Shown piece after piece: positions 1 through 10,626 of a stretch of DNA of 64,000 nucleotides. This DNA is from Nitrospinaceae bacterium (GTDB lineage: Bacteria > Nitrospinota > Nitrospinia > Nitrospinales > Nitrospinaceae): NCBI GenBank assembly GCA_965223665.1, contig OZ245011.1, positions 1,856,001-1,920,000 on the forward strand, read 5' to 3'. The notes under the pieces are model-generated. The model had not been told where the DNA came from, searched no databases, and saw only the letters and a program-made list of their open reading frames with translations. The translations under genes were made by a program, and so were the position numbers. Position 1 is the stretch's first letter; every line of letters begins with the position of its first letter.

Positions 1-8
1 ATATGACC

Positions 9-36
9 TTGACTGTATCGAAAAGGATTTTATTAA
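9..36 (+). promoter_or_regulatory. sigma70-like promoter of small secreted protein copy 1
   Basis: TTGACT-N16-TATTAA; equivalent TTGACA-N16-TATAAA upstream of paralog at 6640-6667. Confidence 0.55.
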
Positions 37-44
37 TCTTATAA

Positions 45-155
45 CAAACCCGAGTAGCCGGATAGCTACAACCTAATAATAGGGGTTGAAAGTAAGACAT
101 GTTGATTTCTTAATTAATGATTAACTTCGGGTTTGGGTCCCACAATTTCCGGCTA
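45..155 (+). ncRNA. candidate structured cis-regulatory leader RNA (pseudoknot), copy 1
   Basis: Pairings 46-53/127-134, 55-62/148-155, 69-74/83-88, 101-106/120-125 are all retained in copy 2, with compensatory or G-U changes in three of the helices. Confidence 0.6.
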
Positions 156-188
156 TAACTTTTCATTTATTTTTTTAAGGAGGTTACC

Positions 189-428
189 ATGAAAAAACTC
201 TTATTTTTATTGATCACCGTTTCATTTTTAATTGGAATTTCCTCAGTCAACGCATTTGCCAGCGAACCGGCACCCGATCCTATGGACCGCCATGCAGTCT
301 GGACTAATACCTCCACTGTTGGAAAGGGCGGCACGGCACCCATGCCTATGACCACCAAAGGTGACAAGGGAAAAACTTTTGACTTTATTCGTGAAACAAA
401 GTCTTACGAATACAATAAAAATTCTTAA
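189..428 (+). CDS. small secreted protein (79 aa), paralog of 6822..7064
   Basis: AAGGAGG RBS, Sec signal peptide ending AFA, motifs DRHAVWT and FDFIRETKSYEYNK shared with paralog. Confidence 0.85.
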   Translation: MKKLLFLLITVSFLIGISSVNAFASEPAPDPMDRHAVWTNTSTVGKGGTAPMPMTTKGDKGKTFDFIRETKSYEYNKNS

Positions 429-447
429 TTAATCGTTAACCTGTTTT

Positions 448-481
448 ACGGCTCCTCCTAAAAGAGGAGCCGTTTTTTTTT
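448..481 (+). terminator. intrinsic terminator
   Basis: ACGGCTCCTC-loop-GAGGAGCCGT followed by T run. Confidence 0.85.
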
Positions 482-581
482 ATCTGTTCGCAAAAGTTTT
501 GCGGGTGGATGTAGAGGACTTCTTTATATCGGGTTGAGTTTTGTCCTCATTTTTCAGGCTAAAATCTGTTAACCGATTTTG

Positions 582-1745
582 TCAGGAAGAAGATTCCAAT
601 ACAAGAGGAATTTCAATATGTTTACCTTCACGCCACAATTTCACTTTCACAGTGTCGCCAATCTGGTAGCGATTAATTACCTTAACCAGGTCATCCATCT
701 TTCCTATCTTTTCATCATTGATGGCAAGGATGATATCGCCTCCTACAGCAAAACTTAAATTGCCAATGATTAAATTCGTGTGGCCTCCTTTAATACCACT
801 TTTACGTGCCGGGCTTCCCGGAAAGGTTTCCACAACCAAAACACCGGTTTCCAGACTGATATTGAGAATCTTTCCCAATTCGGGGTTCAGGTTTAAACCC
901 GAAATGCCTATCCAGGGTTTCGCGTACTTCCCTGTGGTGATCAGCTGTATGGCTACCGCCTTGGCACGATTGACCGGGATGGAAAATCCAATTCCCTGAT
1001 ACCCGCCGGACAAACTGAAAATAGCGGTGTTGATTCCGATCACTTCACCGCTGGAGTTGAGTAACGGTCCCCCTGAGTTTCCGGGGTTGATGGCCGCATC
1101 GGTTTGGATGAGATCGTACAACACGCCGCCGTCATTACTTTGGATTTGTCGATTCAGCGCACTCACGATACCCACCGTCATGGTGTGGGACAGTCCGAAT
1201 GGGTTTCCAATCGCAATAGCTTTTTGTCCTACTTTAATCTTGTCCGAATTCCCCAGAACCGCAACACGGGTTACATATTTCTCCGGAATTTTTATTACCG
1301 CCAAATCAGAGGAGGGATCTCGGCCAATTAAAACCGCATCCACTTTTTTCTGGTTTCCCAGCGTAACAGTGATAATCTTTGCGTTTTCTACCACATGGTT
1401 ATTCGTCAGAATATAACCCTTTTTATCAATAATGAATCCCGTGCCCTGCCCCTGTTTCGGAATAATGTTCCTCCAGTAGTTCATGGTCAAGGTGGTAGCA
1501 GCAATATTCACCACCGCTTCATGCACCTGTTCGAATACATCCGTAGTGATTTTTTCATCGGGCGAAATAACGAGGGGACGGTCCAATTTTTCAGGCCGAT
1601 TGAAATCCAGTTCCTGAGCCGACGGCGAATCCACCACTGCTAAAGAAATTTTTTCCCATTGGCCCCACAGGGTCAGCAACAGGGCAAACAGCATTAGAAT
1701 CCAGAAGTGTGATTTTGAATTTTTAAATGATGAAAATAAGTTCAT
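582..1745 (-). CDS. htrA: HtrA/DegP-family serine protease with one PDZ domain
   Basis: TNNHVV, DLAV, QTDAAINPGNSGGPL catalytic triad motifs; N-terminal hydrophobic anchor; C-terminal PDZ. Confidence 0.92.
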   Translation of the reverse strand: MNLFSSFKNSKSHFWILMLFALLLTLWGQWEKISLAVVDSPSAQELDFNRPEKLDRPLVISPDEKITTDVFEQVHEAVVNIAATTLTMNYWRNIIPKQGQGTGFIIDKKGYILTNNHVVENAKIITVTLGNQKKVDAVLIGRDPSSDLAVIKIPEKYVTRVAVLGNSDKIKVGQKAIAIGNPFGLSHTMTVGIVSALNRQIQSNDGGVLYDLIQTDAAINPGNSGGPLLNSSGEVIGINTAIFSLSGGYQGIGFSIPVNRAKAVAIQLITTGKYAKPWIGISGLNLNPELGKILNISLETGVLVVETFPGSPARKSGIKGGHTNLIIGNLSFAVGGDIILAINDEKIGKMDDLVKVINRYQIGDTVKVKLWREGKHIEIPLVLESSS

Positions 1746-1773
1746 TTTTTTCCTGTTTTTTTCAGCCCCTAAC

Positions 1774-1802
1774 TTGACAGAAAATCTAGTGGGTATTATT
1801 TA
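1774..1802 (+). promoter_or_regulatory. sigma70-like promoter of hsp20 pair
   Basis: TTGACA-N17-TATTTA; same -35/-10 as the promoter of the hsp20 at 3609-4055. Confidence 0.5.
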
Positions 1803-1923
1803 ATTTATAGGAAGGTAATAAAATGTGTCCGTTTGTATGTCAAGAGAAGGAATCTGTTTTGTGCAGTGGTTAACACTCATGGGCTAACAAGCCATGAAAT
1901 TTCAATAATTTTTAATTGGAGGT

Positions 1924-2436
1924 ATGACCATGAACCTTAAAGAACTGATTCCCTGGTATCGGGATAAAGATGGAAATTTGTTGAAAAACACCGATGATAA
2001 TCCTTTTTTGACTTTACAACGGGAAATGAATCAGATGTTCGACAGTTTCTCCCGATCCATTTTCGACGACTCCTCCTTTTTTAAGGGAAGAGGATCCGGG
2101 ATGGTATCCACTAAAATGGATGTTAAGGAAACTGATAAAAATATCCAGGTGACATTGGAACTACCCGGAATCGAGGAAAAGGATATTGATGTGAATGTTA
2201 CCAAAGATCTGCTGACGATTAAGGGGGAAAAACAAGCAGAAAAGGACGAAAAGAAAGAGGGCTATCATTTGATTGAAAGATCCTTCGGTTCTTTTCATCG
2301 GTCTGTCCCTTTACCACCGGGTGTAGAAACAGATCAGGTGAAAGCGAATTTTAAAAATGGAGTGCTGAAAATAACGCTTCCTAAATCTGAGGAAGCACAA
2401 AAAGAAACAAAAAAAGTCGAGATTAGTTCCGACTAG
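1924..2436 (+). CDS. Hsp20/alpha-crystallin small heat-shock protein
   Basis: ELPG, ERSFGSFHRS, ANFKNGVLKITLPK, C-terminal VEI motif. Confidence 0.95.
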   Translation: MTMNLKELIPWYRDKDGNLLKNTDDNPFLTLQREMNQMFDSFSRSIFDDSSFFKGRGSGMVSTKMDVKETDKNIQVTLELPGIEEKDIDVNVTKDLLTIKGEKQAEKDEKKEGYHLIERSFGSFHRSVPLPPGVETDQVKANFKNGVLKITLPKSEEAQKETKKVEISSD

Positions 2437-2542
2437 AAAAAAATGAGGCAATAGCAAAAGTGGGCCTGCCCTCTTATCTCTATTGCCTCAGCTTTATGCG
2501 AAAGATAATTTGGGTCTCAATGTTTTTAAAAGGGGCAATGTG

Positions 2543-3235
2543 ATGAAACCAAATGATTTTTCAAAAACAAATATTTCAGACACACCACCTGAAGCCAACG
2601 ACGCAGAGATGCATCGGATGAATGAATCCTACATGAACGATTTCGAGTCAAGGCGGCAATTTAAAATTAATCAGTGGCTGTGGGTAGCCATCGTGGTACT
2701 CTCTGTGATCATTGCAGTGCAAAGTTACCTGTTGTGGAAACCGCTGCAGCAACAATCTAAAGGGGATTCCTCGTCTTTAGGTTTAAAAATGGATGATTTG
2801 TTTAAACAAAAAGATCCGATAGGTCAATGGGACGCATTTGATGAATTTCAGAAAATGCAAAAGCGAATGGATGACTTTTTTAAAGAGTCTACTTCCCAAT
2901 GGGAAACCCACGAACCCCCAATGAAAAGTTTTTCCTTCGGCGGGCCGTTTTCTCAACAATACGATTTAAAAGAAACGGATGATCAAGTCATCGTTTCTTT
3001 AAATCTGCCAGGGTTAAATGAAACGAATATCGATGTGACCGTTCAAGAGGGTACTTTAAAAATCAGTGGAACCCTGCGGGAAGAAAAGAAGCGAAGCAAA
3101 GACAACTCCACCTTTCAAAGCAAAAGATCTTCTCATTTTGAGCGTTATCTCACCCTTCCCCAACCGGTTAAGGAAAACTCCCTGAAAGTAGACTACGAGG
3201 ACAATACCTTAACTGTTCAATTGGATAAAAAATAA
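2543..3235 (+). CDS. membrane-anchored Hsp20-family protein
   Basis: TM helix WLWVAIVVLSVIIAVQSYLLW then alpha-crystallin domain (NLPG, FERYLTLP, YEDNTLTV); start chosen at ATG 2543 after AGGGG. Confidence 0.85.
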   Translation: MKPNDFSKTNISDTPPEANDAEMHRMNESYMNDFESRRQFKINQWLWVAIVVLSVIIAVQSYLLWKPLQQQSKGDSSSLGLKMDDLFKQKDPIGQWDAFDEFQKMQKRMDDFFKESTSQWETHEPPMKSFSFGGPFSQQYDLKETDDQVIVSLNLPGLNETNIDVTVQEGTLKISGTLREEKKRSKDNSTFQSKRSSHFERYLTLPQPVKENSLKVDYEDNTLTVQLDKK

Positions 3236-3476
3236 CCTGCGAAAAGACATCTTGCCGTTTAACAGAAAAGGTTTTTAAGAAGTTGACGGCGAATCTCCAT
3301 TTGTCCTGGAGGCTCCTGTATTTTCCAGTGTCTGCGACAATAACAAACCGGAAAGAATTTAAAAAATAAAGTTGCCTCCTCCAGTTTAAGTTTTTTTAGG
3401 ACAAATACTCGGGGTAAGAAAGGCTCTTCAATTTTAAGACAAAATCAAAGTTAATGGTAAGCTCTGAATTTTCCAC

Positions 3477-3512
3477 AAAAAAAAAGCCTGCGCTCGAAGA
3501 AAACGCAGGCTT
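3477..3512 (-). terminator. intrinsic terminator of minus-strand hsp20
   Basis: AAGCCTGCG/CGCAGGCTT stem preceded by an A run on + strand. Confidence 0.75.
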
Positions 3513-3608
3513 ATTGGTTCAAAGGTTAGGTTGTTAAAGGACCTCGTAAAATTTAAATCTCCGAGCCAAACCCGTTCCCGGGGCCTGGCCCGCAGACAGT
3601 TTCATATT

Positions 3609-4055
3609 TTAGGAGGTGCCCTGGATTTCGACCTTCACGGTCTTGGGTTTCACTTCCTCACGCTTGGGCAGAACCAGAGTCAGAACTCCGCTGTCCAGCT
3701 TCGCGGAGATCTTCTCCGGGTCCACTCCATCACCTAGCACAAAGGAGCGTTCAAAACTTTGTGATGCAAATTCACGCATGTGATAGTTTTCCTCTTGCTT
3801 CTCAGTCTTTTCTTCTACATGACCTTTGAGGAACAGTTTACCGTCGCGAGTTTCCACACTGATGTCTTTTTCAGTCAATCCGGGAACCTGCGCCGTTAGT
3901 GTAAAGTTATCTTCGTTTTCTACCACATTCACTTTGACAGAACTCGTTTTCGCAGGAGCCCACTCAGGGTTCCAGCGAAACGCATTATTAAAAAATGGAT
4001 CGTCATCAAAAAAACGATCAATAAAATGATTTGGTTTATAAGTTACTACATTCAT
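3609..4055 (-). CDS. Hsp20/alpha-crystallin small heat-shock protein
   Basis: QVPG, FERSFVL, AKLDSGVLTLVLPK, VEI. Confidence 0.95.
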   Translation of the reverse strand: MNVVTYKPNHFIDRFFDDDPFFNNAFRWNPEWAPAKTSSVKVNVVENEDNFTLTAQVPGLTEKDISVETRDGKLFLKGHVEEKTEKQEENYHMREFASQSFERSFVLGDGVDPEKISAKLDSGVLTLVLPKREEVKPKTVKVEIQGTS

Positions 4056-4154
4056 TTGGGACCTCCAGTTATGTAATTCATCCTAAAAATAAAACAATTT
4101 TTTGTTATTGATTAATTTTTAAGAGCCGGCACTCATTTAACTTGTTCTGCTTAA

Positions 4155-4183
4155 TAAATAAAATCGCCATTTTCACCTGTCAA
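4155..4183 (-). promoter_or_regulatory. sigma70-like promoter of hsp20
   Basis: Minus strand TTGACA-N17-TATTTA. Confidence 0.55.
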
Positions 4184-4341
4184 GGTGACAAGTCATTTTT
4201 TTTATTTTCTGAAATTTCAAACCATTGAAAAAACCTTAAAATAAGGGCTGTTTCGACGATCCCCCTAAATTTCCAATCACTTACCCTCTCACCAAAATTG
4301 TAAAATTCTGACAAAAAATTAAAACTTTTCTGTAATTTTTT

Positions 4342-4356
4342 TCAGAGTTTTTCTGA
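4342..4356. promoter_or_regulatory. candidate NarL/LuxR-type operator
   Basis: TCAG-N7-CTGA palindrome; related boxes at 15982, 20096, 20119. Confidence 0.4.
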
Positions 4357-4478
4357 TTGTCGAAACTAAACCGTTTTTTTTAATATAAAGAACGTTCCTT
4401 ATATAGGGCAGGATTTTAGGGTTTTTTTAATTGATAGAATTCGTTTTAAAACATTCCATTTGAGAAAGGTTGTATTGC

Positions 4479-5003
4479 ATGTGTGGTCAGGATCACTTAA
4501 CTCCCATTTATGAGTCTGGTTTAAGTAAAATTGAAAAATGGTCCGGGAGTTTGCACACTCTGCTATCTTACGATTCGGACTATTTATCGCTGAAAATCTG
4601 GCAGAATATTTTACACCTGCAAGGTCAAATGCTTCAGGAATGCATTGCCAAAGAAGCTCCTATATATCTCTTTCTTCCGCCTTCCAACTCCAGAGAAAAT
4701 GAAATTCAAATTCAAAACAGGGCTCATGTAAAAAACATTTCGATGAGCTCTGTCTTGAATTTATCGATTGTTTCCAAAAACAGTGGAAAAGAAATTTTGT
4801 CCGTAAGAGAACTCTCTCCCCACAAAGAGTTGCAGTTTGAGTTTAAGAAGGAAGGAGCCTATGAATTGATTTATTCCTTCGTAAATCAGCAAAAATTCGA
4901 GAAACAAATTATTAAAGTGGTTCCCAGGCGCGATTCCTCCCAACCCTATCCACCCAACTATAACCCGGACCTCAATCCCAACTGGGCCAAACGGATTTAT
5001 TAA
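4479..5003 (+). CDS. hypothetical protein, possible cupredoxin-like beta-sandwich without Cu ligands; paralog of 20221..20673
   Basis: Clear alignment with 20221 ORF (IWxNIL, IYLF, SM.S.LNLSI, EF.KEG.(Y/F)E.IY.F, IKV.P, PN(Y/F).P.L.P.W). Confidence 0.7.
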   Translation: MCGQDHLTPIYESGLSKIEKWSGSLHTLLSYDSDYLSLKIWQNILHLQGQMLQECIAKEAPIYLFLPPSNSRENEIQIQNRAHVKNISMSSVLNLSIVSKNSGKEILSVRELSPHKELQFEFKKEGAYELIYSFVNQQKFEKQIIKVVPRRDSSQPYPPNYNPDLNPNWAKRIY

Positions 5004-5050
5004 ATTAAATACTTTCATTCTGGCCTATCCGTTCTAAGCAGAATAAACTT

Positions 5051-6052
5051 TTATTGGGGAGAGTCTATGGAATCTCGAATTTCTTCAATCCAGGGACCGG
5101 AAAGGAGTTGGTCAAAATGTTGAATGTATTTAAGGGACATTTCTTGGAGCAAATCCGAATTGTGCGCCAGGCGTTCGACTTGAACCCACAAATTCCATTC
5201 CTTTCGTAAGCTCCAATTCGGATCGTTCAATCTTGAATCCGGCAAACGGTAATGAAAAGTTGGCCGCGCAGAAGTCAGGTCGTCATTTAGCTGTTTTTCA
5301 ACTTTTTCTCTATTCAAAAACGTAAGTAACGGTAGTAAATCCAATTCTCGATTACGGGTCGAATTATCCGACAAATAATCATCTATAAATTGATTTAAAT
5401 CGGGTTGATACGCACTATTCATTATCTTAAGGCAATACGATTCCGGAAACGAATTAATATAGGGAGATATTTTTCGAGCCACATCCACATCAATGGCCTC
5501 GTGAAGCCAGTCACTTAACAGAAGAAATGCCCGCAAATGATTTAGGATCGCCTCCACCTTCCTGGAAGGAACTTCAGGATTGATATGAACCCCAAAGGCA
5601 AATATAAAAGCTTCATCGGTACCTTTAACATCCAGTTCCTTTAAGCCGTCGACTAAAGCATCCAACTCATTTAAGCGATCCAGCGGGATGGCATCGGTAA
5701 TCACTTCATACGGAACGACGGATTTGCTAATATCCCCAACAATTTCGCACAACTTTTCCACTGCTTCATATTTAAGAAACCGTTCCAATTCACTTTCGTC
5801 CAGTTGGTCTTCGGAAGATTTTTCAGGATGCACCAGTTGCGTATCGAGTTGCACTGAAAAATCACCCAACTTGCTTTTCAGAATTTTATAGTAATGTGCA
5901 TTGACGGTTTCGAGACGGCCACCAAAAATATCCTTAATTTTCTCTGCCACTTCCAACGGGTTTTCTGCAGCAAACTCGATTTCAAAACCAACGGTTCGCG
6001 TTTTGCCCTTATCGTTTTGGATAATGGGAGGCAGTAAAAAGGAATCATTCAT
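5051..6052 (-). CDS. putative amidoligase (COOH-NH2 ligase, Amidoligase_2-like)
   Basis: GFEIEF, YEVIT, FGVHINP, RNRELDLLP, RPTFHYRLPD motifs. Confidence 0.85.
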   Translation of the reverse strand: MNDSFLLPPIIQNDKGKTRTVGFEIEFAAENPLEVAEKIKDIFGGRLETVNAHYYKILKSKLGDFSVQLDTQLVHPEKSSEDQLDESELERFLKYEAVEKLCEIVGDISKSVVPYEVITDAIPLDRLNELDALVDGLKELDVKGTDEAFIFAFGVHINPEVPSRKVEAILNHLRAFLLLSDWLHEAIDVDVARKISPYINSFPESYCLKIMNSAYQPDLNQFIDDYLSDNSTRNRELDLLPLLTFLNREKVEKQLNDDLTSARPTFHYRLPDSRLNDPNWSLRKEWNLWVQVERLAHNSDLLQEMSLKYIQHFDQLLSGPWIEEIRDSIDSPQ

Positions 6053-6158
6053 TCACTTCTCCTTTATTTTTTGTGATCACAAAAATCTAAATCTTCCCCA
6101 GGACACCGGCCCACATCGTAGAAACCTTTATGGTCAGTTTCGCTTCCTCCTTCATACC

Positions 6159-6458
6159 TCACAGTATTTTACTTTTCACCCAATCCTTAATTCCTTCAAA
6201 AGTCGCGTTCAGGTCTTCACCCAAACCATCCAGCTTGGCTTTCAATCCTTCCAGGGCACTGTCTTCCGCATTTATAAGTAGACTTTGCAGTTCCTTAATG
6301 ACGGCAATTTGTTTTCTAAGGTTAACGATATGCTCCTCATATTGTTCTTTAATTTCATCCGAGGCATTTTCCAGGTCTTTTTTTAGAACCTCAATATTAA
6401 ATGTATATTGTTCCAGCTTTTGATCCAGCTGGTCCAGATACTCTTGTTTTTTAAACAT
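6159..6458 (-). CDS. small coiled-coil protein
   Basis: Heptad-rich helical sequence; GGGG RBS before ATG 6458. Confidence 0.7.
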   Translation of the reverse strand: MFKKQEYLDQLDQKLEQYTFNIEVLKKDLENASDEIKEQYEEHIVNLRKQIAVIKELQSLLINAEDSALEGLKAKLDGLGEDLNATFEGIKDWVKSKIL

Positions 6459-6639
6459 GGTTTCCCCTTGCAAAAAAGTGAACTCCTTATCCTTTTATCA
6501 CTAAACAGATTTAAATTGAAAGATTTTTAATTCAGGTATTTAAGAGAGACCCTTTCCAATGAAAAGTAATTCCTATAAAAGCCGAGACTATCAACCCAAA
6601 GGGCATCCTGAATTTTTTTTAATTTTTTTTCTACTGACC

Positions 6640-6667
6640 TTGACAATTTTCCAGTCCATTTTATAAA
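6640..6667 (+). promoter_or_regulatory. sigma70-like promoter of small secreted protein copy 2
   Basis: TTGACA-N16-TATAAA. Confidence 0.6.
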
Positions 6668-6675
6668 TAAATTAA

Positions 6676-6788
6676 CAAGCCTGATTGGCCGGAATATTTG
6701 CAACCTGACTTTAAGGGTTGAACTAAAACCATGATGATTTCTTAATTAATGAATTATTTCGGGCTTTAATCTTTTTTGGTTCCGGCTG
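6676..6788 (+). ncRNA. candidate structured cis-regulatory leader RNA (pseudoknot), copy 2
   Basis: 6677-6684/6759-6766, 6686-6694/6780-6788, 6701-6706/6715-6720, 6733-6739/6752-6758 pairings equivalent to copy 1. Confidence 0.6.
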
Positions 6789-6821
6789 TAACTTTTCATT
6801 TTTTTTCTTTAGGAGGTTACC

Positions 6822-7064
6822 ATGAAAAAACTCTTATTTTTATTGATTGCAACTACCCTACTCATCGGATTTTCAGGAGTCAGCGCTTTTGCCAAAGACC
6901 CCGCTTCCCCCGAAGTAGACCGTCACGCCGTATGGACCCATGCCACTTCATCTGGCAAATGGAGTCAAGGCCCCATGATCTCAAAAGACCGCAAAAGCAA
7001 TCCTTTTGACTTTATTCGTGAAACAAAATCTTACGAATATAATAAAGGCAGTAAACAATCTTAA
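6822..7064 (+). CDS. small secreted protein (80 aa), paralog of 189..428
   Basis: AGGAGG RBS, signal peptide ending AFA, shared conserved motifs. Confidence 0.85.
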   Translation: MKKLLFLLIATTLLIGFSGVSAFAKDPASPEVDRHAVWTHATSSGKWSQGPMISKDRKSNPFDFIRETKSYEYNKGSKQS

Positions 7065-7077
7065 TTAATAACCTATG

Positions 7078-7108
7078 AGCGGCTCCTCTCAGGAAGAGGA
7101 GTCGCTTT
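7078..7108 (+). terminator. terminator-like hairpin (weak U tail), homologous to 448-481
   Basis: AGCGGCTCCTCT/AGAGGAGTCGCT stem then TTT. Confidence 0.55.
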
Positions 7109-7171
7109 AAAATTTAACGTGCCCTAAAAATAATCCGGTTTTAAACTTTCTTTTAACAAAAAGGAGGAGCC

Positions 7172-7357
7172 ATGACCGTTGCGGAAATAACTCGAAATGA
7201 AGAAACGCGCGCCGTGGAAGAATCACAGGCGGATAACCTGAAACAAAAAATTGAAGGTAGCTTTAAATCCGAGAAAGACGAATTTCACCAACCGAAGTGG
7301 CAAAAGCGCTCTCTCATTCAGGACGCGTTTTACCGATACGGCGGGTATTATTCCTGA
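7172..7357 (+). CDS. small hypothetical protein (61 aa)
   Basis: Strong AAGGAGG RBS; ends FYRYGGYYS. Confidence 0.65.
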   Translation: MTVAEITRNEETRAVEESQADNLKQKIEGSFKSEKDEFHQPKWQKRSLIQDAFYRYGGYYS

Positions 7358-7371
7358 ATCGTTAATACGCT

Positions 7372-10300
7372 TCAACTTTCAAGGGAACTCAGGTTTTTTG
7401 CCAGATATTCGTCAATGGTTTTTAAAAAATGGGGAATAGAAAATGGCTTCGTTATATAAGCTTCAAATCCACACGACAAAGCTTTTTTCTTATCCGTTTC
7501 CATTGCATTGGCACTCACAGCAATCACAGGGATATTTTTTGTTTCTTCATAAGATTGAAGATATTTGAATGCTGTAATCCCGTCTATTTCCGGGAGGTTT
7601 ATATCCATAAGAATTAATTCAGGCTGGTGTTTTTTTGCTAATTCAATACCTATATCTGCTTTGCCGGCTGAAACAAAGCGAATTTCATCACGATTAGATA
7701 GTATTTCTTTTACAAGAAGATGATTAGCTGGATTATCTTCAATATAAAGCAGAGTAAACTTTTTATCAGCCGGCAAAATATTTTTTCTCACCTTGGGTTG
7801 CCCCATGGATACTGAATTTTTGTTTACAGGATTTTTTCCCATTGGAAAATTAACCATAAAACAACTTCCCTTGCCAGGCGTACTGTCTACCCCAATGGTT
7901 CCATTCATCATTTCAACTAAAGATTTTGTCAAAGAGAGACCTATCCCCGTTCCTTCAATCCCCGTGGTTTCGAAACCTATCCTATTAAAGGGCTCAAATA
8001 TTTCCTTCTGTTTTTCTTTTGAAATCCCTGGTCCTGTGTCACTAACTTTTATTTGAACCTGATCGCTTTCCATGAGGGAATAGTCAATTGAAATCGTCCC
8101 TCCTTCTTTGTTGTATTTAACTGCGTTGGAAAGTAAATTCAGCAAAACTTGTTTAAATCGAAGCCGGTCCACATTCACGAAAATTTCTTCGTTTGGGTCC
8201 ATCAGGTTAAAAATATCAATATCCCTCTTTTTCGCCATAGGGCGAAGCAGTGTTAAGGATTCCGAAACTATTTCTTTTAGATTTACATTTTCAATAGAGA
8301 AAGTTGTTTTGCCCGATTCTATGGATGCCAAATCAAGAATTTCATTGATGAGCGCCAATAAATGATTTCCCGCATTTATTATTTCTTTACATCTATCCTG
8401 CTGAGCAGGAGATAAGAGCATTTTGGAATCATTTTTTAATAACTGTCCAAATCCTAAAATTGCATTTAAAGGAGTTCGTAATTCATGACTCATGCTGGAT
8501 AAAAATTTAGATTTTGCGTAATTGGCTTTTTCGGCGTCTTCTTTGGTTTTGATTAATTGCTTTTCAATTTCTTTTCGTTCTGTTATATCTCGGACAATAC
8601 CCACAAAATATATTTTTTCCCCAATGACCATTTCATTAATTGCAAGATCCATAGGGAAAGTTTTTCCAGCTTTAGACAACCCTCTGACTTCGCGTCCAAT
8701 TCCAATTATTTTTGACTTTTTATTTGAAAGGTATTGTTTTAAATAGTTATCGTGATCTGAAGCATAGGGCTCCGGCGCTAGATATGAAATATTCTTTCCA
8801 ATAACCTCAGAAGCCTCATACCCGAAAATTCTTTCTGCACTTGAATTGAACGACTGAATGATTCCCTTGTCATTGATTGTGATCAGTCCGTCTGCAATAT
8901 TTTCGATTATCGAATTGAGCCTCACCTGATTTTCTGCTAATTGAACATTTGTGGAATTAAGTTCTTTAGTCCTTTCATTGACCAGTTGTTCAAGGTGATT
9001 TTGATACTCTTCCAATTCCTGCAAGTATTTTTTTTGCTCGGTAATATCCCGAATAATACAAACATAGAGCAAATGTTCCTCAACATGCATGGGCTTTATC
9101 CGCAATTCAACAGGGAACATGTTCTGATCTTTTTTTATTCCCATGCCTTCCAATTCTTTGGAGGGTTGGGACTCAGCCCATTGAATTAATTTTTTAATGA
9201 GAATATTTTCAGAGATTTTTTCCGAAATCGTAAAAAGACGGTTCAAATTCTTCCCAATAATTTCATTCGAACTGTAACCAAACATTTTTTCTGCAGCCGG
9301 ATTAAAGGATTCCACTACACCTTTTGGGTCGAAAATAGCTACTCCTTCTGTTAAATTATCTATGGTTGCAGAAATCAGTGCTTCATCTCTTAATAATTTT
9401 TCTTCCAGGGCTTCCAAATTGTGTTCTGAAATATCCAGACCAATTCTTTCTTCCTTATAATTCACCCGAAGAGGAAAAACTTTATTTATTCCCCATAAAA
9501 ATACATAGGCAGTACCAAAAGACCAAACGAAACAAATACCCACACCTTCCATTTGTACCCAAAGCTGTTCTAAAACACTGTTCCGGGACCCCCAGGAGGA
9601 GGGATCTCCAAATAATGCAACGGCTAAAGTTCCCCAAACCCCGTTAACACAATGAATGGGAATAGCGTTGACCACGTCATCGATTTTTTGTTTCTCTAAA
9701 AATTGGGTGGCAAAAAAACTTAAAAGACCCGCCACCAGCCCAATAATGATTGAGGATTGATCATCTACAATGTTACAGCAAGCAGTTATAGCCACTAAGC
9801 CCGACAAACTTCCGTTGATTAGAGTTTCCGGGCTGGGGCGTTTCAGTATTATCCAGGATATAAGGAGAGAAGATAAACTTCCGGAAATGCCGGCTAAAAG
9901 AGTATTGAGAATAATGTTGGGTACTTCTTGATTAAAATGTAAGGTACTTCCCCCGTTAAAACCAAACCATCCAATCCATAATAACAATCCGCCCAACACG
10001 GCCAGGGGAATATTATTCGGCTGAAAAAATTTCTTTTCACGATTATACCTTCCAGTTCGAGGCCCTAAAATAATTAATGCGGCCAGGGCGACCCATCCCC
10101 CAACACTGTGAACTACAGTCGACCCGGCAAAATCTATAAAACCTCTTTCCGCTAGCCAACCCACCGGCTGCCCGGATTCCAATCCCGCCCACGCCCAATG
10201 CCCAAATAGGGGATAAATAATTCCTGAAACTATCATCCCGATAATTAGATAGCCCAAAAACCGGACGCGTTCGGCGATTGCTCCTGAAATAATAGTGACC

Positions 10301-10626
10301 GCCGTCCCGCAAAACATCAACTCAAACAGAAAAAATGTTTTTTGCCAGGGATCATATATTTCGTTTAGGAAAAATCCAGTGGTGCCTAATAAACCGTTAT
10401 GGGAAACACCAAACAGGAGAGCAAAACCCCATATCCAAAAAATACTGGAAGAAATGGTAAGATCGGCAAAATTCTTTAGAGCAACATTGATTGCGTTTTT
10501 TCTTCTAACCAATCCCGCTTCAAGACAAGTAAAGCCCGCTTGCATAATTATTAGAAAACCAGTGCAAACAATAAGCCAAATTAAATCCTGATTGGAATAG
10601 ATTAAATTATTCAAAACTATGTCCAA
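7372..10626 (-). CDS. ammonium transporter (Amt)-PAS-PAS-hybrid histidine kinase-receiver fusion
   Basis: Amt motifs DFAGSTVVH, WIGWFGFNGGS, IDDVV..IPIH; two PAS domains; SHELRTPLNAILGF H-box; N/G boxes; REC (IEDN, LMDINLP, YITKP). Confidence 0.93.
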   Translation of the reverse strand: MDIVLNNLIYSNQDLIWLIVCTGFLIIMQAGFTCLEAGLVRRKNAINVALKNFADLTISSSIFWIWGFALLFGVSHNGLLGTTGFFLNEIYDPWQKTFFLFELMFCGTAVTIISGAIAERVRFLGYLIIGMIVSGIIYPLFGHWAWAGLESGQPVGWLAERGFIDFAGSTVVHSVGGWVALAALIILGPRTGRYNREKKFFQPNNIPLAVLGGLLLWIGWFGFNGGSTLHFNQEVPNIILNTLLAGISGSLSSLLISWIILKRPSPETLINGSLSGLVAITACCNIVDDQSSIIIGLVAGLLSFFATQFLEKQKIDDVVNAIPIHCVNGVWGTLAVALFGDPSSWGSRNSVLEQLWVQMEGVGICFVWSFGTAYVFLWGINKVFPLRVNYKEERIGLDISEHNLEALEEKLLRDEALISATIDNLTEGVAIFDPKGVVESFNPAAEKMFGYSSNEIIGKNLNRLFTISEKISENILIKKLIQWAESQPSKELEGMGIKKDQNMFPVELRIKPMHVEEHLLYVCIIRDITEQKKYLQELEEYQNHLEQLVNERTKELNSTNVQLAENQVRLNSIIENIADGLITINDKGIIQSFNSSAERIFGYEASEVIGKNISYLAPEPYASDHDNYLKQYLSNKKSKIIGIGREVRGLSKAGKTFPMDLAINEMVIGEKIYFVGIVRDITERKEIEKQLIKTKEDAEKANYAKSKFLSSMSHELRTPLNAILGFGQLLKNDSKMLLSPAQQDRCKEIINAGNHLLALINEILDLASIESGKTTFSIENVNLKEIVSESLTLLRPMAKKRDIDIFNLMDPNEEIFVNVDRLRFKQVLLNLLSNAVKYNKEGGTISIDYSLMESDQVQIKVSDTGPGISKEKQKEIFEPFNRIGFETTGIEGTGIGLSLTKSLVEMMNGTIGVDSTPGKGSCFMVNFPMGKNPVNKNSVSMGQPKVRKNILPADKKFTLLYIEDNPANHLLVKEILSNRDEIRFVSAGKADIGIELAKKHQPELILMDINLPEIDGITAFKYLQSYEETKNIPVIAVSANAMETDKKKALSCGFEAYITKPFSIPHFLKTIDEYLAKNLSSLES

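Follow-up and report, generated by a model that had tools for sequence, protein, structure and literature searches.

Two genes for small secreted proteins in a Nitrospinaceae bacterium are each preceded by a long leader RNA that carries conserved, mutually complementary blocks. The reading as a conserved cis-acting leader RNA is supported by the comparison of four copies. We regard the leader as a translational control element, most likely an RNA thermometer; this reading comes from folding models and is held tentatively, with slightly less than even confidence. The earlier note on this DNA had offered a new riboswitch, a thermometer or a protein-binding leader. The thermometer fits best of the three because the promoter is common to heat-shock genes and the best-conserved unpaired stretch can base-pair with the Shine-Dalgarno sequence (SD) and the AUG, whereas the riboswitch is unlikely. 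The window referred to throughout is the whole 64-kb stretch of genomic DNA that was analyzed; its host is a Nitrospinaceae bacterium, and the titles of related records point to Nitrospinaceae and Nitrospinota metagenome-assembled genomes.

The arrangement of a promoter and a long leader upstream of a small gene occurs twice, at window positions 1-188 and 6632-6821. The genes behind these leaders are as follows.

189-428, plus strand: mini-protein gene 1, 79 aa, with a signal peptide, a DRHAVWT motif and a FDFIRETKSYEY motif
448-483, plus strand: intrinsic terminator after gene 1, with a 10-bp stem, seven G-C pairs and a T run
6822-7064, plus strand: mini-protein gene 2, 80 aa, a secreted paralogue of gene 1

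The two products are paralogues that share the signal peptide, the DRHAVWT motif and the C-terminal FDFIRETKSYEY motif, which bears out the earlier claim of two secreted mini-proteins downstream of the leaders. They have no Pfam or NCBIfam family match, the gene downstream of the leader encodes no HSP20 domain, and the AlphaFold2 model is poor (mean pLDDT 61.2, pTM 0.22). The mini-proteins are an undescribed secreted family that is wider than the leader type but small. It accounts for 44 of the 50%-identity clusters in a set of 1.84 billion representatives. Members were found in 23/102 genomes of the order using a one-protein query, in 27/120 genomes of the phylum using a profile search, and at six loci in a scan of metagenome contigs, none with more than 38% identity. 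A protein-anchored scan of genome contigs gave 12 mini-protein loci, none of which added g1-type leaders. Family proteins are 80-105 aa long and consist of the signal peptide, DRHAVWT, a variable middle and FDFIRETKSYDY; in the sister subfamily (genera g2 and g4) the C-terminus reads ...(D/R)(L/R)PWQ(R/K)(V/I)G instead of FDFIRETKSYDY. The stop codon lies in the context TCT TAA TTAA in three of the four gene copies (423-433 and 7059-7069 in the window), which resembles TCTTAATTAA in the leader block. As a motif in its own right, TAATTAA at the stop codon was rejected; it is absent from one of the four genes and was judged to be probably a tandem-stop context.

The promoters of the leaders and the sigma factor gene that bears on them were placed as follows.

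8-37, plus strand: promoter copy 1, with CTTGAC at 8-13, a 14-nt gap and ATTTTAT at 27-33; block ATTTTATTAAT at 27-37
6639-6668, plus strand: promoter copy 2, predicted heat-shock type
G000:C1:3057067-3057858: sigma-32 family gene (NF005143)

The leader had been placed about 10 nt after a sigma70-like promoter. The spacing stands, with the leader start 9 nt past the -10 element, but the promoters fail a sigma-70 consensus scan and appear to be of the heat-shock type. The sigma-32 (RpoH) promoter consensus has a CTTGAA-like -35 and a CCCCATNT-like -10 and precedes chaperone and protease genes. Compared with this consensus, the -10 of the window promoter is T-rich, not C-rich. A sigma-32 family protein is encoded in the genome and scores 245.4 bits against the NF005143 cut-off of 241. 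A strict search of the genome for the promoter motif returned 13 matches, and nine of them precede genes named as a heat-shock set: genes for Hsp70 (DnaK-type), a ClpB-type protein, ClpP, two Hsp20 proteins, an HtrA-like protease, a Bax1-I protein and the two mini-proteins. The ClpP gene lies 315 nt from its match and its assignment is doubtful. The remaining four matches have no such gene behind them, and a more relaxed form of the motif goes with a third hsp20 gene of the window (1924-2436). The motif CTTGAC-N14-ATTTTAT(T)TA stands at 8-37, 1770-1806 (plus strand), 4150-4192 (minus strand) and 1818-1844 (minus strand) in the window and at G000:C1 610367, 863154, 440043 and 1855892 (minus strand) elsewhere in the genome. 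CTTGAC-N14-ATTTTAT appears to be sigma-32-like and is a candidate sigma-32 regulon signature for the Nitrospinaceae.

The promoter is kept before the orthologues in other genera, often with an A/T palindrome upstream. This A/T-rich near-perfect palindrome of the ATTAAAAATTTTTAAT type lies ~20-45 nt upstream of the -35 at loci L034, L036-L038, L040, L042 and L045-L047, and it is degenerate in the two copies of the window. The ATTAAAAATTTTTAAT-type palindrome could be an UP element or a regulator site. Both mini-protein genes are predicted members of the heat-shock regulon within an hsp20/htrA island, because their promoter is common to the dnaK, clpB, htrA and hsp20 genes, a sigma-32 protein is encoded, and the promoter is kept in the orthologues of other genera. 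The association with heat-shock or virulence genes by which RNA thermometers are judged is seen here in the sharing of the promoter and in the location in the hsp20/htrA cluster.

The leaders and their four helices (P1 to P4) have the following coordinates.

43-188, plus strand: leader copy 1, 146 nt, start placed from the promoter; 160.8 bits with covariance model R1
46-53/127-134, plus strand: P1 of copy 1, 5' strand 3 nt from the predicted 5' end
55-62/148-155, plus strand: P2 of copy 1, domain-closing helix
69-74/83-88 (69-88), plus strand: P3 hairpin of copy 1, stem invariant, loop variable
101-106/120-125, plus strand: P4 of copy 1, weak helix with its 5' strand inside the invariant block
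6674-6821, plus strand: leader copy 2, 148 nt; 180.1 bits with R1
6677-6684/6759-6766, plus strand: P1 of copy 2
6686-6694/6780-6788, plus strand: P2 of copy 2
6701-6706/6715-6720, plus strand: P3 of copy 2
6733-6739/6752-6758, plus strand: P4 of copy 2

The earlier note described four helices that are kept while loops and linkers diverge. P1, P2 and P3 were recovered at the positions described, but P4 is no better than shuffled sequence. The base changes quoted for the helices are correct on direct reading, and the end of P2 is 22 nt upstream of the SD, in agreement with an element said to end ~22 nt before the ribosome-binding site. The folding energy of the P3 hairpin is -6.8 kcal/mol in copy 1 and -7.3 kcal/mol in copy 2, and one of 200 shuffles was as good. 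The P4 hairpin has -3.3 and -1.7 kcal/mol, values equalled by 14/200 and 114/200 shuffles, and three of the six columns in its 3' strand are variable. Folded as a whole, the leaders have unexceptional energies (z -1.24 and -1.56). In the alignment of the four copies, 3/16 columns vary in P1, 2/16 in P2 and 0/12 in P3 (5/44 in the stems together), compared to 35/42 in the linkers, loops and 5' end. The difference between stems and other columns (Fisher p ~1e-11) is partly circular, the stems having been picked from conserved blocks; the informative observation is that the conserved blocks complement one another. When copy 1 was dinucleotide-shuffled 5000 times, two perfect Watson-Crick stems of at least 8 bp arose 135 times. 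The paralogue types are 71-79% identical in the leader, 56-66% in the region coding for the mature protein and 25-49% in the DNA that precedes the promoter. The leader pattern is more than chance for conserved complementary blocks, and not for formal covariation.

The distribution of the leader is narrow. The window genome has the two copies only, and a second genome of the genus (G001) has two more, making four in total. A covariance model and a search of related genomes had been called for. The model built from the four copies (R1) returned these same four from 120 Nitrospinota genomes and nothing beyond them, the next match (E 0.0136) not being at a family gene. Weak R1 matches at L109, L116 and L120 were rejected as spurious, being low-complexity or SD-region matches at unrelated genes. 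A DNA search gave no further full-length leader match among 61 relatives. Rfam 15 had no match at gathering score in the 64-kb window, and a search at E<=10 of window positions 1-7200 gave nine weak matches, none inside either leader. The absence of an Rfam match in either leader agrees with the statement that no known riboswitch was recognized.

Orthologous genes in other genera have leaders that are similar in length, different in sequence and nested in architecture. In g2 and g4, which belong to the same family, the SD has its best partner at -92 to -100 relative to the AUG, in a pyrimidine-rich stretch. The g2 anti-SD pairs in 32/33 cells with one U-A/C-G compensatory change, a result equalled by 184/500 shuffles, and slid registers pair in 82% of cells. 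The cross-genus alignment of this region, which puts the SD out of register, was set aside. A long-range closing helix 20-35 nt before the AUG, the counterpart of P2, has p<=0.05 versus shuffles in 12/19 leaders with a predicted start, the kin among them being non-independent. In a distant subgroup (L046, L101, L102 and L104) an inner 5' strand is the partner of the strand that corresponds by homology to the P4-3'/P1-3' region, and the outer and inner helices are nested; GCCUUC in this L046-type subgroup can pair with the subgroup's own SD.

The covariation put forward for the helices shrinks to one compensatory pair in the four-sequence alignment (P1, A-U to G-C), which was reached by 181/500 shuffles. 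Covariation has no statistical power here because there are just four related, non-independent sequences. P1 is paired in every counted alignment cell; the count misses the terminal pair of G001a, which an alignment gap obscures and which is A.A on direct reading. The U-A to A-U swap in P4 appears by eye only; MAFFT and the covariance model both shift the register, and G001b has an A.A mismatch. The order of strands that suggested a pseudoknot was confirmed. P1-5', P2-5', P1-3' and P2-3' cross in copy 1 (46-53 < 55-62 < 127-134 < 148-155) and likewise in copy 2. ViennaRNA, which considers nested folds only, forms P1 in copy 1 at 20 °C and P2 at 37 °C. With connectors of 1 nt and 13 nt in the crossed fold, a P1/P2 pseudoknot is sterically conceivable, and it is possible that P1 and P2 form together. 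The crossed order seems peculiar to the genus of the window because the counterpart helices in sister lineages are nested.

The most conserved unpaired part of the leader is an A/U-rich block that was compared with the 3' end of the leader.

97-120, plus strand: invariant 24-nt block of copy 1, with CAUG at 98-101, anti-SD UGAUUUCUUAA at 103-113 and AAUGA at 116-120; also the P4 5' strand and loop
156-191, plus strand: tail, SD and start of copy 1, with the U-rich tail at 156-168, UCAUU at 163-167, SD AAGGAGG at 177-183 and the start codon at 189-191
6729-6752, plus strand: invariant block of copy 2; its pairing with 6808-6824 is the minimum-energy fold
6789-6824, plus strand: tail, SD and start of copy 2, with SD AGGAGG at 6811-6816 and the start codon

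The block has 2/23 variable columns and the tail/SD region 6/36 in the four copies. Three collinear antiparallel segments join them: CAUG with the CAUG at the start codon, UGAUUUCUUAA with UU(U/A)AGGAGGUUA, and AAUGA with UCAUU in the tail. This complementarity extends over ~20 bp rich in A-U and G-U, and in copy 1 the block pairs with 159-192. For the duplex of the block with the tail, SD and AUG, energies at 37 °C range across the four copies from -12.1 (copy 1) to -15.2 kcal/mol. Mononucleotide-shuffled blocks average -5.0 to -5.7 kcal/mol, and the observed value was reached in 0.15-0.65% of 2000 shuffles (0.65% for copy 1 and 0.25% for copy 2). The best partner of the SD anywhere in the leader is no better than in shuffles (p 0.37, 0.14, 0.105 and 0.16 for the four copies), and SD pairing is ordinary for the genome, the two genes lying at percentiles 43 and 19 when set against 530 other genes with an SD. 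The case for SD hiding draws on the conservation-based choice of the block, and not on energy by itself, because U-rich leaders pair easily with the SD. Two other roles for this region were considered and rejected. The AUG within the block, taken as the start of an upstream open reading frame, lacks a preceding SD; it is probably better accounted for by its complementarity to the start-codon CAUG. A transcription attenuator was set aside, with no terminator-like site on the plus strand in 1-190 or 6630-6825.

Folding calculations were used to follow the fold in which the block hides the SD and AUG. Unconstrained RNAfold at 37 °C gives this fold as the minimum-energy structure of copy 2. It is the free minimum-energy fold of G000b from 10 to 55 °C, of G001b from 10 to 30 °C and of G001a from 30 to 37 °C, and in constrained folding all four copies have it at or near the minimum among nested folds at temperatures up to 37 °C. 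The gap between the hiding fold and the P2+P3+P4 fold with a free SD moves in G000a from -7.9 kcal/mol at 10 °C to +0.6 kcal/mol at 45 °C. The two folds cross between 55 and 65 °C in G001b and G000b, and the gap is nearly temperature-flat in G001a (-2.0 to -2.7 kcal/mol from 10 to 45 °C). The nearest-neighbor model has the hiding fold losing ground with temperature in three of the four copies. The crossover temperatures (45 to >55 °C) depend on the model, which was calculated without the pseudoknot, and the predicted accessibility of the SD rises only gradually with temperature. We infer the temperature response of the leader from these models.

The thermometer reading can be set out as a sequence of steps. 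Transcription would begin at the sigma-32-like heat-shock promoter, from which the leader start is deduced. The RNA would fold around a G+C-rich scaffold in which P3 is a solid hairpin, P2 closes the domain and P1 ties down the extreme 5' end. The A/U-rich 24-nt block would alternate between the weak P4 hairpin and pairing with the tail, SD and AUG. At low temperature a long, weak A-U/G-U helix would hide the SD and AUG. Upon heat shock the block-tail helix would melt, the G+C-rich scaffold would persist and translation would begin; P4 may hold the released anti-SD after melting. A translational layer would in this way be added onto transcriptional heat-shock induction. A bolder version makes the leader a new architectural class of thermometer, in which a pseudoknotted G+C-rich scaffold (P1 crossing P2, plus P3) is combined with a tripartite weak helix of ~20 bp that buries the tail, SD and AUG, giving two-layer control (sigma-32 and RNA melting) of an undescribed periplasmic family of heat-shock mini-proteins in the Nitrospinota. 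We consider this complete version unlikely, if conceivable.

The leader may instead stabilize the mRNA, P1 burying the 5' end and the closed domain blocking 5'-end-dependent decay, with no switching and an incidental complementarity to the SD. P1 begins 3 nt from the predicted 5' end, a local G+C-rich hairpin is at the same place in other genera, the closing long-range helix recurs (12/19 leaders at p<=0.05, with non-independent kin), and the SD pairing energy is ordinary for the genome. A stabilizer leaves unexplained, however, why the A/U-rich block is as conserved as the stems (2/23 variable) and why its complementarity to the tail, SD and AUG goes beyond shuffles. We give this explanation an appreciable but low probability. 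The conservation of the block at the sequence level would also suit a binding site that the P1-P3 scaffold displays to a protein or small RNA, such as a factor for envelope stress or chaperone feedback, so that the factor and not temperature regulates. A partly similar loop motif occurs in the distant L046-type subgroup. A candidate factor was not found, however, and such a site would be expected at other regulon genes but is absent from the dnaK, clpB, htrA and hsp20 leaders that were read. The three-segment complementarity of the block to its own mRNA is, moreover, a self-contained explanation, and a trans-acting factor seems doubtful to us.

The leader might have no function, the similarity being a residue of gene duplication. 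There are four copies only, in two genomes of one genus, as this explanation would have it; but divergence is concentrated in the linkers (35/42) and spares the stems (5/44), and conservation is higher in the leader than in the sequence coding for the mature protein. We judge it improbable that the leader is inert. A metabolite riboswitch with the pseudoknotted P1/P2 core as its aptamer would account for the multi-helix junction, the possible pseudoknot and an SD-pairing expression platform, and it would be new, since Rfam has no match. An aptamer core would be expected in the junctions and loops, yet 35/42 of these columns vary within one genus. The R1 model has no other copy in 120 Nitrospinota genomes, the leaders of orthologues in other genera differ in sequence and are nested, and no metabolic role is known for the gene, which is placed in the heat-shock regulon. 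A riboswitch is very unlikely because no core is conserved outside the genus. Conservation at the DNA level, with the TTAATTAA palindrome in the block as a repressor operator downstream of the promoter, can be given hardly any weight: the 8-bp palindrome is perfect inside the invariant block in 3/4 copies and TAATTAA also follows the stop codon in 3/4 genes, but G001a breaks the palindrome, and the other conserved blocks are complementary pairs with wobble-compatible (G-U) changes, which place the conservation on the RNA because they make sense only there.

The thermometer reading was compared with known SD-sequestering leaders. ROSE elements lie upstream of sHSP genes and have the anti-SD motif U(U/C)GCU. 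This motif is in 0/4 of our leaders, which also differ in having no Rfam ROSE match, a gene that is not an sHSP gene, and long-range helices. The likeness to ROSE is that a multi-hairpin 5' UTR of heat-shock regulon genes hides the SD (PMC4166951), as the leader is predicted to do. The same paper describes RNA thermometers as having little sequence conservation, unlike riboswitches, and a varied architecture, and has fourU thermometers controlling heat-shock genes including that of periplasmic HtrA (PMC4166951). In fourU elements (Salmonella agsA and htrA), as predicted for the leader, a U- or pyrimidine-rich stretch pairs with the SD by A-U and G-U pairs, and the genes are heat-shock genes including a periplasmic one (PMC4166951). 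In the leader a UUUCU-containing anti-SD is predicted to pair with AGGAGG. It differs from fourU in that the anti-SD lies ~70 nt upstream in another domain and not in a local hairpin. There is no run of four U opposite AGGA; the predicted anti-SD partner is UGAUUUCUU(AA) in 4/4 copies. The AUG and tail would be paired too, long-range G+C-rich helices frame the element, and there is no Rfam match. The defining feature of fourU, four U pairing with AGGA in a local hairpin, was not found in the leaders. Local U runs are present beside the SD and share part of the pairing in the ensemble, and these may make a fourU-like contribution in the folding model.

The Escherichia coli rpoH mRNA thermosensor uses a complex long-range structure, and not a simple hairpin, that frees the start region on heating (PMC4166951), which is what the leader is proposed to do. 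It differs in that rpoH uses up to 229 nt of coding sequence, whereas the partners in the leader are all in the 5' UTR and AUG. In SD-sequestering pseudoknot riboswitches such as preQ1-II and SAM-II, an SD-carrying 3' tail pairs with the loop of an upstream domain. The SD-bearing 3' tail of the leader would likewise pair with the loop of an upstream domain, but the leader has no aptamer core conserved beyond one genus and no link to a metabolic gene. The leader is absent from Rfam, and we place it as a putative member among the SD-sequestering heat-shock leaders.

Several other features of the neighborhood were recorded. The hsp20 leaders at 4056-4160 (minus strand) and G000:C1 ~1855845-1855870 (minus strand) have in common a short hairpin, GAGU(G/A)CCG(G/A)CUC, after a similar AA(C)nAGUUnAAUGA start; the hairpin may be a separate conserved leader element of sHSP genes. 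The gene at 2483-3235 (plus strand), directly 3' of another hsp20 gene, encodes 250 aa with a long N-terminal extension, in which a membrane segment is predicted by eye, followed by an HSP20 domain. An Amidoligase_2 family gene (E 3.2e-58) at 5051-6052 (minus strand) lies between the heat-shock genes and mini-protein gene 2. Adjoining the heat-shock island, 7372-10626 (minus strand) encodes a 1084-aa fusion protein with the appearance of an ammonium-sensing hybrid histidine kinase; its parts are an ammonium transporter domain, two PAS domains, HisKA, HATPase_c and a receiver domain.

Among marine nitrite oxidizers, the Nitrospinota are a major group. A full-text search combining Nitrospina and RNA thermometer found no literature on RNA-level regulation in Nitrospinota, and a search for thermometer and pseudoknot found, among the matches listed, general literature only and none on the leader. 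The reach of the finding is limited because a single genus accounts for all copies found of this leader type, and because all that goes further than sequence conservation is modeled. If the thermometer reading is true, a heat-shock promoter and regulon would be defined for the Nitrospinota, and a secreted mini-protein of no known family would join that regulon. The leader would then represent a thermometer design in which stable long-range helices pre-organize a distant, weak anti-SD helix.
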